Source: Patescibacteria group bacterium (GTDB taxonomy: Bacteria; Patescibacteriota; Patescibacteriia; PEXW01). From it: a DNA stretch of 64,000 nt. Below are positions 1,712 to 36,246 of this stretch, piece by piece. Where the stretch lies: positions 103,202 through 167,201 of the forward strand of contig JBAYJA010000003.1 in the NCBI GenBank assembly GCA_041665345.1, in the 5' to 3' direction. The notes under the pieces are model-generated. The model was not told the DNA's origin. It did not search any database and worked only from the letters and a program-made list of their open reading frames with translations. The translations under genes were made by a program, and so were the position numbers. Numbering within the stretch: the stretch's first letter is position 1; the number at the start of each line of letters is the position of its first letter.

Positions 1712-1759
1712 GGTGTTCATCACACTTTCCGCCAAAGGCGGATCCGCCTCTGGCGGAAA

Positions 1760-1807
1760 AATGTCGTCCCGAAAGGGTTGTCGGTTCGAATCCGACCGGC
1801 GGTACCA
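1760..1807 (+). other. tRNA-like 3' fragment (variable arm, T-arm, acceptor 3' strand, ACCA) with no matching 5' acceptor half nearby
   Basis: gtcgg-ttcgaat-ccgac T-arm then cggcggt-a-cca; no 5' partner of the form [ag][ct][ct]g[ct][ct]g was found within about 150 bp upstream (longer-range scan not done); upstream only GC hairpins (ccgcc aaa ggcgg; ccgcc tct ggcgg). Confidence 0.5.
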
Positions 1808-2004
1808 GCTCGTTTCGTGCTCCGCCCTGCGTGTAGCCGTTGCTACGGCTCCACTCCGGACTTTGCACGAAGCCTCGCTTTACCCCATTGATCGGTGCTC
1901 GCCCCAGAGCGGGCTGCGCTTCCGCTCAACGGGGACCCCGAAAAAACCCTGCTCCCCATTCGACTTTGCTCAGGGTGCGCGCCACATCTGTGGGGACCCC
2001 ACAA
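1805..2004 (+). repeat. tRNA-abutting structured repeat, copy A (longest and most diverged), starting at the CCA of the tRNA-like fragment
   Basis: CCAGCTCGTTTCG ... CGAAGCCTCGCTTTACCCCA ... TGCGCGCCACATCTGTGGGGACCCC; same modules as copies B-E. Confidence 0.75.
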
Positions 2005-5126: not shown

Positions 5127-6698
5127 CTACCTCCTTATGAGCGAAGTGAGTTTTGCGGTACTTTTTAGTGTGGGTTTCTTCACCATGCGTGCCTCGACCG
5201 TGGCAGTAAATTTTTGGTACTTGGTTTTTTTTGGTGAGGTGAGGCGGACAACGAAGGTCTGCGTTTGACCCGAGACAATGACTGCTGTGGCAGATTTTTT
5301 CTTATTCACGGTTGCGGCCCAACCTTTGGGCAGGTTCGTGACGCGGAGTTCTGCTGTACGCCCTCCGCAGAGCACAGAGTTATGCTTCACGGTGACGTTG
5401 AAGCTGAGTTCTTGGCCGGGTTTCCCAATGCTTTTTATGGCTTTGGCGGTTACGGAGGGTGCTTTCCACTCGCAAAGCGATTCCCCGGTGAACCGCACCC
5501 GAATAGCCATGGCGGATGCATTCCGCGCCAGCACGCCAAAACTGACACCAGCCACGGGGTCGCTATAACTTGAACCAAGCGGCAGCGCTGGGTCGTAGAT
5601 ATCCATACCTCCACGCTGTGAACCCGGGGTCATGTCCAGTATCGTTGAACTGAACCGGGTGCCGGTAGAGTTTCCCATGTGGACGAGAACACCATTTGGT
5701 ACGCCCAATTGCTGCATGGTTGGAATGTAGCCAGTCACATTATCAAATCCGATGGACTGCCGGTATTCCAGGTAGTACCAACTAGTCACGTCGCCGTTGG
5801 CATCGCGAGCCTGGGGAATTTTCAGCACCTTTGGGCCAACGCCTGCGAGTTGGTATGGATATATAGTGAAGTCTTTTGATTGCGTTACCGTAATGACATC
5901 CGCTGGTGGTAGCCAGCCATAGTTCTCCCGTTGCTGCGCCGTCAAGAGCAACGACCGCGAGCCAGTTGCCCCCATGATATTGTAGTGGTCGGCATATTCA
6001 ACCTCCCTGCAGTTCGTGCCATTGATGACGGCCGGTGGGTCACATTGCCAAGAATTCGCGTGCGCCAATCCCATTAAGTGTGCCAGCTCATGGTGTGGAT
6101 TGCTGCCCATATTGCCGTTGATGTCCACAATGCCGTACCGTACATTCCCCGCTTCGGGCACTGGTGTATGCGACGCCAGACCTTCTGCGCCACACAGCTT
6201 CTGCCTGGAGAGCACCATGATCGTGTTGTACTGCGTATAGTCAATATCGGCGTCGGCTGCCGCAATTGCATCGCCGAAGTATGAGGTCCAATCACAGTCC
6301 CCGTCAGTCTCCGTCGCCGGCGTATCAATGACGTACCATGACCCGTTATTGTCGAACACATCGCCAGTGACGGAAACTTCGCCATTGGAAACTTCCGTAA
6401 AATACGAGGCCATGGAGTACGTATTGGAAAAGAGTTCGCCAGTCACAAAATTCTTTGTCCATGGATTTTTGGTACCGTAGATTTTTGGTTTTGTGGGATT
6501 ATCGGTAAAGGTTACCAGGATGACGGCAACTTTATAATTCGGGAAGGCTTCCAAGTAATTGTAACTAGTTGGAGCCGCCACGTAGCCTGCTTTCACCTGC
6601 AAGGGGAAAAGGAGTATTGCGATACACGTGACGAATACGCCGGTAGCGATGATTTTTTGGAGGGAGCGTGTGTATTGGTTCATGAAACTAGTATACAC
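5127..6698 (-). CDS. Secreted metzincin-type zinc metalloprotease
   Basis: Signal peptide; HELAHLMGLAH = HExxHxxGxxH; 523 aa. Confidence 0.7.
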   Translation of the reverse strand: MYTSFMNQYTRSLQKIIATGVFVTCIAILLFPLQVKAGYVAAPTSYNYLEAFPNYKVAVILVTFTDNPTKPKIYGTKNPWTKNFVTGELFSNTYSMASYFTEVSNGEVSVTGDVFDNNGSWYVIDTPATETDGDCDWTSYFGDAIAAADADIDYTQYNTIMVLSRQKLCGAEGLASHTPVPEAGNVRYGIVDINGNMGSNPHHELAHLMGLAHANSWQCDPPAVINGTNCREVEYADHYNIMGATGSRSLLLTAQQRENYGWLPPADVITVTQSKDFTIYPYQLAGVGPKVLKIPQARDANGDVTSWYYLEYRQSIGFDNVTGYIPTMQQLGVPNGVLVHMGNSTGTRFSSTILDMTPGSQRGGMDIYDPALPLGSSYSDPVAGVSFGVLARNASAMAIRVRFTGESLCEWKAPSVTAKAIKSIGKPGQELSFNVTVKHNSVLCGGRTAELRVTNLPKGWAATVNKKKSATAVIVSGQTQTFVVRLTSPKKTKYQKFTATVEARMVKKPTLKSTAKLTSLIRR

Positions 6699-6744
6699 CA
6701 GGGTGAGTTATGCAAAAGCTAACCCCGTAACTCCCCCTGTTCTA

Positions 6745-6887
6745 TTTTTTGGGCTCCCCACAGATGTGGCGCGCAACCCCGTCTTCGGGGTGAGCACGCG
6801 TCTGTGGGGTAAAGCGAGGCTTCGAGCGGAATCCGAAGTAGCCTCGCAGCAACGGGGCTACGAAGGGTGGAGCTCGAAACGAGCTGG
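6745..6887 (-). repeat. tRNA-abutting structured repeat, copy B (element on minus strand; ends at a CCA plus a 17-nt tRNA-Gly 3' fragment)
   Basis: rc reads ...cacccgctCCAGCTCGTTTCGAGCT...CGAAGCCTCGCTTTACCCCACAGACGCGTGCTC[accccgaagacggggt]TGCGCGCCACATCTGTGGGGAGCCCAAAAAA. Confidence 0.8.
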
Positions 6888-6904
6888 AGCGGGTGATGGG
6901 ATTC
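6884..6904. repeat. 21-bp direct repeat, copy 1 (ctggagcgggtgatgggattc): duplicate of the tRNA-Gly 3' end
   Basis: Identical to 7058..7078 (T-loop half to CCA of tRNA-Gly read on the minus strand). Confidence 0.85.
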
Positions 6905-7058
6905 CCCCTTCGGGGCCTGGGTTGCCCGGCGCCTCCGGCGCATCGGTCAACCCTGCTCATCCCAACGCGAGGCAAGCAGTTGCCTCGCTTCACCTCCAGG
7001 CCTTCCAAGGTGACAATTGTAGGTAGCAAAAAATACCTTGGAATTTTTAACTAAGGTC

Positions 7059-7133
7059 TGGAGCGGGTGATGGGATTCGCACCCACGGCCTCTTCCTTGG
7101 CAAGGAAGCGTTCTACTGCTGAACTACACCCGC
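7059..7133 (-). tRNA. tRNA-Gly(GCC), CCA encoded
   Basis: rc gcgggtgtagttcagcagtagaacgcttccttgccaaggaag...gtgggtgcgaatcccatcacccgctcca; anticodon loop ttgccaa. Confidence 0.9.
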
Positions 7134-7149
7134 ATAGTATTTATTGAAT

Positions 7150-7325
7150 TTTTTTCGGGGGTCCCCGCAGATGTGGCGCGCAGTCCCGCTGCGGGACGAG
7201 CACGCGTCTGTGGGGTAAAGCGAGCTGGCCTGCCAGCCGAAGCTTAGAGAAAACACTTTATGTCCTCCTACGCTCGGAAGCTTCGGAGGACAGCCTTCGC
7301 TCTCGCCAGAGCTCGTTGCGAAGGC
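7150..7325 (-). repeat. tRNA-abutting structured repeat, copy C (abuts the CCA of tRNA-Cys)
   Basis: ccccgcagatgtggcgcgca[gtcccgctgcgggac]gagcacgcgtctgtggggtaaagcgag...; the inner hairpin differs from copy B by compensatory changes. Confidence 0.75.
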
Positions 7326-7400
7326 TGGAGGCCACGGGCGGGATCGAACCGCCGAATAAGGGTTTTGCAGACCCTCGCCTTACCACTTGGCTACGTGGCC
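7326..7400 (-). tRNA. tRNA-Cys(GCA), discriminator U, CCA encoded
   Basis: rc ggccacgtagccaagtggtaaggcgagggtctgcaaaacccttattcggcggttcgatcccgcccgtggcctcca. Confidence 0.9.
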
Positions 7401-7469
7401 GCGCGCCCTTACCTCGCCCTGCTACAGGGCACAACCCATGCTACCAGACTCCCCTTGCAACGGCAACCC

Positions 7470-8573
7470 TTACCGATGGTCTGCGCCAACAGCCTGGCTC
7501 ACATTGGAGAATCCATCCCGTTGCAAAAGTGCCAGGAGACGCTTGTTGACGTGCTGAATGGTGGCTGGACCCCCAAAGATGAAACCGGTAATGAGCTGTA
7601 CCAGATTTGCGCCAGCGCGGATTTTTTCGTAGGCATGGTCACCGGTAAAAATGCCGCCTGTACCAATCAAAGTCAGTTTCCCCTGCGCGAGAGCGTATGC
7701 CCGTCGTATCGTTTCTGTGGAGAGGTTGCGAACAGGTTTGCCCGATAACCCACCTGGCCAGTCTGGATTATGGTCTGCTGGAAAATCTAGGAGCGTTCGG
7801 GCTTTGGCTTTGTCCTTGAGAAGATTGCCAATGACCAACCCTTGCATCTCGTACTTGCGTGCCAGATCTACAATTGCTTGAAGGTCGTTCTCATTCGTAT
7901 CTGGGCTGATCTTCAGGTAGGTTGGTTTACGAATATTGCCATTTTGTCGAGCTTTGTGCAGTGCCTGGAGCAATGGTTCAAGGGCTTGGGGATTGCTGAA
8001 TGGGGTGCCATCAGGAGTATTTGGGCAACTTAAGTTTATTGTGGTGTAGGCTCCTATTGCCCTCAGCCGAACGTAGGAAAGGACGTAATCCGCAATTGCT
8101 GCTTGGCCTATGCAGTCCGGTTGATTTGACTTTGCAATGGAAACGCCAAAGGGCATTTCCACGCGTGTGCGTTCCAGTCGCTGAGCAACGCGTTCCACCC
8201 CCTGGCTCCGTAAACCATAGTTCACCACCAGGGATTCGTTGCGCACCATGCGCCTGGCCCAGGGTTTGGGGTTGCCGGTGTAGGGCCGACCGGTAATGGA
8301 GCCAACTTCTGAAAAGCCAAAACCAAAGGTTTGCGCAAAATGGAGGTTGTGACCGTCCTTATCAAAACCCGCGGATAGGCCAATGGGGTTTTGGTATAGC
8401 ACGCCATCCACGGTTGTCTGTAGGGCCGGATGCTGCACCTGGAGAATGTGACGAAGCGCATGCCCAAGGATTGGCGTGCGTGCGGCAAATTCACTGCCGG
8501 TTGCTACGATTGGGTGAATGGTGTCTGGTGAGAAACGGTAGAGGATGGGTCGGAGGACGTGACGGTAGAGCAT
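7470..8573 (-). CDS. pyrD: Dihydroorotate dehydrogenase (quinone), class 2
   Basis: N-terminus MLYRHVLRPILYRFSPDTIH aligns to E. coli PyrD MYYPFVRKALFQLDPERAH; GLSGKP, IGTGGI motifs; the ORF extends to 8591, start chosen at the second Met. Confidence 0.85.
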   Translation of the reverse strand: MLYRHVLRPILYRFSPDTIHPIVATGSEFAARTPILGHALRHILQVQHPALQTTVDGVLYQNPIGLSAGFDKDGHNLHFAQTFGFGFSEVGSITGRPYTGNPKPWARRMVRNESLVVNYGLRSQGVERVAQRLERTRVEMPFGVSIAKSNQPDCIGQAAIADYVLSYVRLRAIGAYTTINLSCPNTPDGTPFSNPQALEPLLQALHKARQNGNIRKPTYLKISPDTNENDLQAIVDLARKYEMQGLVIGNLLKDKAKARTLLDFPADHNPDWPGGLSGKPVRNLSTETIRRAYALAQGKLTLIGTGGIFTGDHAYEKIRAGANLVQLITGFIFGGPATIQHVNKRLLALLQRDGFSNVSQAVGADHR

Positions 8574-36100: not shown

Positions 36101-36246
36101 GCTCGTTTTGCCCTGCGGTCTCCGCGCGTCCCGCTGCTGCGTGACTCGCTCCAACCATAGGGCAAAGCCTCGCTTTACCCTATGAAGCCGTACTCCCTCC
36201 CTTCGGTCGGTCCGTGCCTGCTTCATGGGGACCCCGAAAGAAAATA
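36098..36246 (+). repeat. tRNA-abutting structured repeat, copy E (starts at the CCA of the split tRNA)
   Basis: CCAGCTCGTTTTG...ggcaaagcctcgctttaccc-tatgaagc-[hairpin]-gcttcat-ggggaccccgaaagaaaa; the stem X/X' (tatgaagc/gcttcata) covaries relative to copies B and C. Confidence 0.7.

Follow-up and report, generated by a model that had tools for sequence, protein, structure and literature searches.

The window analyzed here is a 64-kb stretch of DNA from a Patescibacteria group bacterium, in which the gene for tRNA-Gly(gcc) is followed on the same strand by a second copy of its own 3' end. This copy, a 21-mer at positions 6884-6904, is the 3' terminus of a conserved, structured, gene-like unit that copies parts of tRNA-Gly and is here referred to as TLE-Gly (TLE = tRNA-like element). 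In the favored reading, to which a probability of about 0.5 is given, TLE-Gly is co-transcribed with its neighbors, processed like a tRNA, and serves, encoded in cis, as a mimic or decoy of the tRNA-Gly 3' end. A first-pass annotation of the window had taken the duplication for a signature of integration into a tRNA gene, left behind as the scar of a nearly deleted integrative element or as a minimal mobile unit.

The duplicated tRNA-Gly 3' end and the fold of TLE-Gly

The duplication of the tRNA-Gly 3' end was annotated correctly with respect to its coordinates, its gap of 153 bp, and its direct orientation (Table 1). Exactly two copies of the 21-mer CTGGAGCGGGTGATGGGATTC are present in the 64 kb (6884-6904 and 7058-7078), with no third match even when three mismatches are allowed, and with a chance expectation of 0 in 100 shuffles. 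Both copies lie on the minus strand; in tRNA sense, the repeat reads GAATCCCATCACCCGCTCCA plus a G, and GAATCCCATCACCCGCTCCA equals nucleotides 57-76 of tRNA-Gly, i.e., the 3' half of the T loop, the 3' strands of the T stem and the acceptor stem, U73, and CCA. The copies are separated by exactly 153 bp (6905-7057), and the distal one lies 174 nt downstream of the other on the same strand. The gene-free interval had been described as highly structured, which holds for its distal ~95 nt (6905-6997), structured as well as conserved, but not for the tRNA-proximal 60 nt (6998-7057), which are AT-rich and unalignable. The three hairpins that had been pointed out, namely, ccccttcgggg (H3), gcgcctccggcgc (the inner hairpin of H2), and gcgaggcaagcagttgcctcgc (H1), are real, and the structured repeat 'copy B' (6747-6884) indeed abuts the distal repeat copy. 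Two open reading frames (ORFs) in this region, at 6628-7026 (+) and 6742-7029 (-), were rejected as genes, being without Pfam signal and overlying covarying RNA. A scan of positions 6600-7600, including the spacer at 6998-7057, returned no sigma70-type promoter-like or terminator-like site.

Table 1. Features of the tRNA-Gly locus, of the related elements, and of the other tRNA loci (positions refer to the window unless a locus of a relative is named).
Feature	Position or sequence	Strand	Basis or remark
tRNA-Cys(gca)	7326-7400	-	ARAGORN; Rfam 67 bits; trailer module directly after CCA
Trailer module of tRNA-Cys	7150-7325	-	nhmmer E=1e-14; 3' hairpin domain 7154-7224 = 'copy A'
tRNA-Gly(gcc)	7059-7133	-	ARAGORN; Rfam tRNA 69 bits; 7058-7078 = repeat copy 2
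AT-rich spacer, tRNA-Gly to TLE-Gly	6998-7057	-	60 nt, unalignable with relatives
TLE-Gly, 113 nt	6885-6997	-	covariance-model match 120.8 bits, E=3.5e-27; fold; five-lineage alignment
TLE-Gly closing-stem 5' strand, GGAGGTGA	6990-6997	-	fold; resembles tRNA acceptor 5' strand
TLE-Gly hairpin H1, 9 bp, tetraloop	6967-6988	-	fold
TLE-Gly helix P_T 5' strand, TGGGAT	6959-6964	-	fold
TLE-Gly compound hairpin H2	6919-6953 (inner hairpin 6929-6941)	-	fold
TLE-Gly hairpin H3, small, GC	6905-6915	-	fold
TLE-Gly 3' 20 nt = tRNA-Gly nt 57-76	6885-6904	-	sequence identity
Repeat copy 1	6884-6904	-	TLE 3' end (20 nt) plus first module base G
Trailer module 'copy B'	6747-6884	-	nhmmer E=9e-32; begins directly after TLE-Gly CCA
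Antisense T-loop segment, TLE-Gly (relatives, 11 nt)	TGGGATTCGCA		
Antisense T-loop segment, TLE-Leu	TGGGACTCGAAC		
Antisense T-loop segment, TLE-Ala	GGGAATCGAAC		
Antisense T-loop segment, TLE-Asp	AAGGGAATCGAA		
tRNA-Leu(taa) locus	tRNA 1625-1711; unit 1757-1944	+	variant tRNA fragment, then module
tRNA-Leu(gag) locus	tRNA 32601-32687; trailer unit 32465-32600	-	50-nt trailer 32551-32600 ending ...GAGACCA, then shortened module 32465-32550
tRNA-Ile(tat) locus	tRNA 35948-36024; unit 36071-36239	+	T arm, acceptor 3' strand and CCA of another tRNA (~36071-36100), then full module 36101-36239
GIY-YIG, LAGLIDADG-like and HNH ORFs	L010 3818-4171; L021 988-1278; L028 2213-2473; L018 2620-3297; L020 10738-11214		loci of relatives

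The 113-nt distal part (c6997-6885) has a fold energy of -60.7 kcal/mol (z = -3.6). Its predicted frame consists of a closing stem of 5-7 bp and the helix P_T of 6-8 bp, ending in U-CCA. The 5' end resembles the acceptor 5' strand plus nt 8-9 of tRNA-Gly (GCGGTG-AA versus GCGGGTG-TA), and the inner acceptor pairs of the closing stem are GGUGA/UCACC. The copied 3' end is predicted to contribute to both helices, with ATCCCA (6897-6902) pairing in P_T and TCACC (6892-6896) in the closing stem, while the last ~7 nt (CGCUCCA) are left unpaired. The antisense strand of P_T, UGGGAU(UC), lies upstream and pairs with (GA)AUCCCA of the copied 3' end, i.e., tRNA nt 57-64, so that H2 and H3 are enclosed. 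A single 9-bp hairpin with a tetraloop stands in place of the D and anticodon arms, and two hairpins stand in place of the T loop. Compared with a canonical tRNA gene, the unit has no recognized cloverleaf, no 7-bp acceptor stem, and no set of D, anticodon, and T arms; ARAGORN finds no tRNA at 6885-6997, and the Rfam tRNA model does not match there even at E<=10.

The fold is shared by all five TLE-Gly sequences obtained from the window and its relatives, which span 113-114 alignment columns at 89% mean identity and which, each folded independently, give a common minimum-free-energy shape. In pair counts and covariation statistics that are descriptive at n=5, 94.7% of the cells on this structure are paired, versus 40-49% when the partners are slid, and eight pairs show compensatory double changes (6/9 in H1, the sequence of which is wholly different between lineages, and 2 in H2). 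The closing stem and P_T are invariant and hence without covariation support within TLE-Gly. Where only one partner of a pair has changed (five cases), the result is always G·U on the tRNA-sense strand, and this asymmetry points to selection at the RNA level.

Filled and empty sites in relatives and TLEs at other tRNAs

The DHODH-tRNA-Cys-tRNA-Gly locus was compared in eleven related lineages (loci designated by L numbers), for which partial genomes with 5-20 kb around each locus were used. The closest DHODH match in the protein database is 76% identical, and the source-labelled matches are mostly Patescibacteria. A BLAST search with the insert of 153 bp, run against the window plus the loci compared first, gave only chance matches of 11-12 nt; TLE-Gly homologues surfaced only via the orthologous loci reached through DHODH, and they come from independent assemblies (NCBI, ENA, JGI, and Logan). 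A homologue lies downstream of tRNA-Gly in four lineages (L018-20, L021/22, L023/24, and L025/26), with the window as the fifth. All homologues end in the same 20 nt, which in L018-20 are split by an extra 36-nt hairpin (L018 9208-9243), leaving 14 nt contiguous. The spacer between tRNA-Gly and the TLE is mutually unalignable and varies from ~82 nt (L018) and ~51 nt (L023) to 0 nt (L021 and L025), where the TLE begins at the base immediately after the tRNA-Gly CCA. L025 carries, in addition, a second, partial tandem copy of TLE-Gly.

Empty sites, the search for which had been proposed in the first-pass annotation, were found in two relatives. In L010, the CCA of a tRNA-Gly that is identical in 75/75 nt to that of the window and of L021 is joined straight to the trailer module, and the same CCA|module junction is present in L027, where tRNA-Gly differs only in the anticodon stem and the variable region. 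Both sequence variants of tRNA-Gly occur as filled and as empty sites. These two empty sites indicate that a history of insertion or duplication is real. Of the annotated signature of integration at the tRNA 3' end, the part that stands is that the locus behaves like an insertion that duplicated this end; the part that falls is the scar of a deleted element.

Outside H1, TLE-Gly is 90-98% identical between lineages, as compared to 38-59% identity at the synonymous third positions of DHODH. Conservation at a depth where synonymous sites are near saturation argues for strong constraint, i.e., purifying selection, and not for a decaying scar. In a profile and covariance-model search of 284 kb of related sequence, one intact TLE-Gly was found per lineage, always at tRNA-Gly. 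Further remnants were limited to the partial tandem copy of L025 and to truncated 5' halves, found where tRNA-Gly is of a second variant (variant 2, with a different T arm). In these lineages (L008, L015, and L028), only the truncated 5' half of the TLE is present, positioned after the trailer; intact TLEs were accordingly seen only next to the matching tRNA variant.

The conservation bears directly on the claim that the two 21-mers are attL and attR of a larger integrative element in tRNA-Gly, such as a prophage, a genomic island, or a cis-mobilisable element (CIME), left 153 bp apart after deletion. According to the Islander criteria, a tDNA island comprises an intact tRNA gene, a displaced cognate 3' fragment, and a tyrosine integrase between or near them (PMC4383910). 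An intact tRNA with a displaced 3' fragment in direct orientation, which is the defining signature of such islands (PMC4383910), is present here, as are empty sites in relatives. An integrase, a search for which had been suggested in the annotation, was not found: Pfam searches of the window ORFs of at least 95 aa, unannotated ORFs at E<=0.1 included, gave no integrase, transposase, or reverse transcriptase domain, and the interval holds no gene of any other kind. Its sequence and structure are conserved in five lineages with compensatory changes instead of decaying; att exchange does not explain the sense and antisense tRNA-derived segments, including the copy of the inner part of the acceptor 5' strand; three further tRNA species have the same compact architecture beside them (see below); and in L021 and L025, the element starts right after CCA with no element-derived spacer. 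The first-pass annotation had also held that the same arrangement in related strains, with no sign of an insertion, would speak against its reading, and L018, L021, L023, and L025 do share the arrangement. The reading as a scar of a deleted island, which fails on conservation, content, and recurrence, is largely refuted and has hardly any probability left.

Partial tRNA duplications, for which a wider search had been suggested, do exist elsewhere. At the loci examined, 8/44 non-redundant tRNAs have a downstream copy of their cognate 3' end (Gly five times, Ala, Leu(UAA), and Asp), and the TLE-Gly covariance model itself matches beside tRNA-Leu(taa) in L025 and tRNA-Ala in L003. The cognate copies are identical to their tRNA over 20-21 nt that start at nt 56/57 and end at A76, with L018 (14 nt) as the exception. 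Across this sample of five TLE-Gly and one each of TLE-Leu, TLE-Ala, and TLE-Asp, the Gly, Leu, Ala, and Asp elements carry an exact antisense copy, 11-12 nt long, of the cognate T loop and T-stem 3' strand, and the P_T sequence varies with tRNA identity. The antisense segment pairs with the sense copy and reaches 3-4 nt beyond it; these nucleotides are complementary to nt 54-56, which are present only in the real tRNA. TLE-Leu and TLE-Ala keep the core architecture but show, in their predicted folds, no copy of the acceptor 5' strand in a closing stem, and TLE-Asp (L002) is located after the trailer module instead of before it. Downstream of tRNA-Ile(tat) and tRNA-Leu(gag), the spacers lack significant structure (z = -0.7 and -0.9) and were rejected as TLEs; they resemble decayed fragments or trailers of another kind.

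That TLE-Gly is a decaying pseudogene from a tandem duplication of tRNA-Gly, i.e., a remnant of a tandem array with no function of its own, is very unlikely. Such an origin would account for the tRNA-like 5' end with nt 8-9, for the 3' end identical to the tRNA, and for the head-to-tail, spacer-free junctions of L021 and L025; elsewhere in this clade, too, loci often hold decayed tRNA fragments. It would not account for a unit that escapes both ARAGORN and the Rfam tRNA model (E<=10), that has one 9-bp hairpin instead of the D and anticodon arms and two hairpins instead of the T loop, and that is under strong purifying selection with compensatory changes. Moreover, TLE-Leu and TLE-Ala share the core without a predicted acceptor 5' copy, and an antisense T-loop copy is not a product of decay.

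A more serious, yet still unlikely, alternative is that the TLEs are miniature, non-autonomous, site-specific mobile elements of ~113-230 bp that insert and excise at nt 56/57-76 of the cognate tRNA gene, using the tRNA 3' copy as an att-like site and a recombinase provided in trans, so that the hairpins serve the element. The boundaries between filled and empty sites lie exactly at the 20-nt repeat, for both tRNA-Gly variants; a 20-21-nt boundary is common to four tRNA species; a partial second copy stands in tandem in L025; the order relative to the module varies (L002); and the presence and absence of TLEs are interleaved on a rough tree. An identity block from the T loop to the 3' end is, in addition, the classic footprint of tRNA-targeting tyrosine integrases (PMC4383910). 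A gene for a tyrosine recombinase (Phage_int_SAM_1 + Phage_integrase; L023 6945-7940, minus strand) lies 150 nt upstream of a tRNA-Arg-Cys-Gly-TLE cluster; this enzyme is, however, Xer-like, such a gene adjoins the tRNA cluster only in L023 and at none of the other loci examined, and none was found in the window. Against a mobile element there further stand the single intact copy per cognate tRNA, with none elsewhere, that is seen in 284 kb, and the new antisense T-loop segment that it would require for every new target tRNA. The wobble asymmetry indicates selection on RNA, and the divergence of H1 with compensation, while the remainder is fixed, fits long vertical descent. As for miniature inverted-repeat transposable elements or elements derived from insertion sequences (IS), the many dispersed copies were not seen, with one intact TLE-Gly per lineage in the 284 kb of partial genomes; the repeats present are a 20-21-nt direct target repeat and an internal inverted repeat (antisense versus sense T loop), which is not at the termini like terminal inverted repeats.

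The trailer module and other tRNA loci

The 'copy B' family is a module of ~135 nt, which in the window follows CCA at three places within 6 kb, namely, after tRNA-Cys, after the tRNA-Gly fragment, and after a tRNA 3' fragment past tRNA-Leu(taa). All five tRNAs of the window are trailed by a module, either directly or after a tRNA fragment or TLE, and always right after CCA. In the sequence searched from the window and its relatives, 17/17 distinct modules that match the first profile position start directly after CCA; nine of them stand behind intact tRNAs (Gly three times, Arg twice, His, Asp, Leu, and Cys), and the remaining ones behind tRNA fragments or TLEs. These junctions point to a processing site at CCA|G that is common to tRNAs and TLEs. 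The module consists of a P0/P1 hairpin, a single-stranded CCUCGCUUUA, a long P2 hairpin, and an ACCC tail. RNAalifold, applied to 14 modules, gives a two-domain structure in which 18/30 pairs are retained through double changes, and near-invariant U·G pairs are present that would be A·C mismatches on the opposite strand; covariation and U·G pairs together argue for a structured RNA on the tRNA strand. The module of the window tRNA-Cys has a diverged 5' domain, and the closest relative, L012, has the standard one. The module may represent a new RNA motif that is linked to the 3' ends of tRNAs. One strict pattern each was used for genome-wide and metagenome-wide scans, which place the family in Patescibacteria (one metagenome-assembled genome of GTDB and five metagenome contigs); the scan of viral contigs gave 0 matches. 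As a self-cleaving ribozyme of the hepatitis delta virus-like or hatchet type, the module was rejected because of unfit helix topology and the lack of an Rfam match.

Several loci show turnover of tRNA genes. In the window, positions 1757-1807 correspond to another tRNA-Leu(taa) variant, of which they hold the 3' half (anticodon loop through CCA) and which resembles the intact gene of L008; they are followed by a module (1808-1944) and by an extra partial module 3' half (1969-2003). The stretch 1712-2003 looks like the replacement of one tRNA-Leu(taa) gene by another. In L010 (9160-9390), a tRNA-Cys (variant B), of which the 5' and 3' fragments persist, is disrupted in its anticodon loop by an intact tRNA-Cys (variant A) with 15-nt inverted repeats on either side (cgactgctgaagcat / atgcttcagcagtcg). 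A tRNA-Cys 5' fragment is also present upstream in L008, L025, and L028, with an additional 3' fragment downstream in L028.

Such replacements form the basis for a further alternative at the DNA level, in which the structures are folded single-stranded DNA sites for recombination, replication, or cassette exchange and tRNA-plus-module units are swapped. In its favor, tRNA and trailer seem to be replaced as units (a variant-2 tRNA-Gly plus trailer stands upstream of the truncated TLEs in L008, L015, and L028), a tRNA-Cys is inserted in another one in L010, a tRNA-Leu variant remnant persists in the window, and modules appear homogenized within genomes. Against it, G·U/U·G pairs lie consistently on the tRNA-sense strand, with A·C mismatches on the other, every unit has the orientation of a transcribed tRNA and lies directly next to CCA, the terminus of a mature RNA, and an associated recombinase was not found. 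On balance, a structure that acts as DNA is highly improbable.

Small free-standing ORFs of the GIY-YIG, LAGLIDADG-like, and HNH types are common in the loci of relatives (Table 1), and an HNH ORF is present in L020 but not in the otherwise near-identical L018 and L019; these ORFs might be related to the exchange of tRNA genes as cassettes. Near these tRNA loci, assemblies of such genomes often stop: the contigs of L007, L012, L013, L014, L016, and L017 end within or just after tRNA-Cys, tRNA-Gly, or a module, and that of L007 (9446) ends exactly before the 20-mer inside tRNA-Gly. Such ends may be assembly breaks at repeats or reflect population heterogeneity. A third trailer type, CTCGACGCGTCCC...GTGGTCTGNGACCA with the end ACCA, is present after tRNA-Leu(gag) in the window (32551-32600), where it precedes a module, and after tRNA-Gly in L028 (7588-7632). 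A tRNA-Ile with the anticodon TAT (UAU), as found in the window, is unusual for bacteria. Lastly, a 1028-aa ORF at 29255-32341 (-) matches a vault repeat and the shoulder domain of the major vault protein (E=7e-15), which is unexpected in a bacterium, as vault proteins are typically eukaryotic.

The mimic reading, known systems, and meaning

In the favored reading, TLE-Gly would be co-transcribed with tRNA-Cys and tRNA-Gly and would be released by an endonucleolytic cut directly after its CCA, as implied by each tRNA|module junction, while RNase P possibly cuts at its 5' helix. Precedents are known for both steps, as the RNase Z of Thermotoga cuts after an encoded CCA and acceptor/T-like helices are cleaved by RNase P. 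The product would be a stable, non-decoding RNA in which the tRNA-Gly 3' acceptor strand plus UCCA is displayed on a long helix, and a processing enzyme, a tRNA-binding factor, or a nuclease would be the candidate partner of such a mimic. TLE-Gly may have arisen via insertion or duplication at the tRNA 3' end, and its precise loss would be possible by recombination between the 20-nt repeats.

Several points weigh against this reading, namely, I) the transcription, termini, and processing enzymes of TLE-Gly are all inferred, and the reading names no concrete molecular partner or benefit; II) only five TLE-Gly sequences are available, in which the invariant closing stem and P_T are uninformative on covariation; III) the five inner closing pairs are invariant, and the window, L023, and L025 have three degenerate outer 'acceptor' pairs, so that TLE-Gly is not a canonical aminoacylation substrate; IV) the antisense T-loop segment of the window is degraded to 6 nt (TGGGAT), so that this copy could itself be decaying; and V) the interleaving of TLE-positive and TLE-negative lineages on the rough DHODH tree, the partial tandem copy in L025, and the position of the TLE behind the module in L002 are compatible with a mobile DNA element too, and the high identity could come partly from horizontal spread and not from constraint.

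A bolder and rather doubtful reading is that the TLEs of Patescibacteria form a new, cis-encoded class of tRNA-specific 'guide plus spare end' RNAs, in which an exact antisense guide to the cognate T loop is restrained by pairing with an exact spare copy of the last 20 nt, with the module as a companion RNA. If true, TLEs would act on the tRNA or its gene, e.g., in quality control, as a decoy, or in the repair of tRNA 3' ends attacked by tRNA-directed nucleases; alternatively, they could act in RNA-guided recombination that drives a cassette-like turnover of tRNA genes. The CCA-abutting module would then be the processing or recognition RNA of the same system.

Searches of Rfam 15 recognized only tRNAs and gave no family for either TLE or module, at gathering thresholds for the window and by E-value for 6600-7500, 1500-2150, and four related loci, and full-text literature searches returned no description of such elements. 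Weak Rfam matches to RsmY, SpF41, and Tymo-TLS were due to chance or to overlap with real tRNA. Other candidates were rejected as well: a tmRNA or permuted tmRNA (negative in ARAGORN, multiple copies, no tag), an integron attC-like site (R-box consensus absent), a group II intron or retron (too small, no reverse transcriptase), and a retrovirus-like primer-binding site on the opposite strand (wobble pairs and orientation point to the tRNA-sense strand).

Among known systems, islands of tyrosine integrases share with the TLE locus an intact tRNA, a direct 3' copy from the T loop to the gene end, and empty sites in relatives; the satellite phage P4, for example, uses a site in leuX with a 20-bp 3'-terminal core. 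Unlike islands, the TLE locus has no integrase or cargo, an interval of only 153 bp with covarying RNA-like structure, an additional antisense T-loop copy, and a compact unit that occurs at four tRNA species. CIMEs, known from Streptococcus thermophilus, are cis-mobilisable, att-flanked remnants without recombination genes. They resemble the TLE as small att-flanked units without a recombinase of their own, and the partial tandem copy in L025 is accretion-like; CIMEs are, however, kilobase-scale and decayed and have no conserved RNA fold, whereas the TLE is a constrained structure of 113 nt.

Among RNAs, mascRNA (from MALAT1), the tRNA-like domain of bacterial YrlA, and viral 3' tRNA-like structures have, like the predicted fold of the TLE, an acceptor-like stem, a long helix for the T arm, a 3' NCCA, and no anticodon, and by this likeness a release of the TLE by RNase P/Z-type cuts is plausible. 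The TLE differs from them in its lack of T-loop/D-loop mimicry, its degenerate outer acceptor pairs, its exact 20-nt 3' copy of a cognate tRNA encoded in cis, and the absence of an Rfam family match. A functional 3' external transcribed spacer of a tRNA is known from E. coli, where 3'ETS-leuZ acts as a sponge for small RNAs. Like the module and TLE, it is a structured RNA immediately 3' of a tRNA on the same transcript, with a 5' end that comes from tRNA 3' processing (predicted for the elements here); such spacers contain no tRNA copy, are not multi-copy across many tRNAs, and act by pairing with small RNAs. Lastly, the bridge RNA of IS110 and the omega RNA of IS200/605 are guide-bearing RNAs of mobile elements, and in both of these and the TLE, a structured scaffold holds short segments that match both target strands (here, the tRNA T-loop/3' region). 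The TLE has no associated recombinase or nuclease gene, its sense and antisense segments overlap and pair, and it is located at the tRNA instead of merely targeting it, and the likeness may serve as a lead only.

What looks like a textbook att scar is here a constrained RNA element in which the neighboring tRNA is copied in sense and antisense, and a second covarying RNA module is joined to the CCA of many tRNA genes sampled in this Patescibacteria clade. Island finders that rely on tRNA fragments would mis-call such loci. TLEs and modules are apparently undescribed tRNA-attached RNA structures in Patescibacteria, and if they are expressed as predicted, they would bear on tRNA 3' maturation in ultra-small, enzyme-poor bacteria through cuts after an encoded CCA, on the replacement and turnover of tRNA genes in these genomes, and on a regulatory or protective role of tRNA 3'-end mimics.

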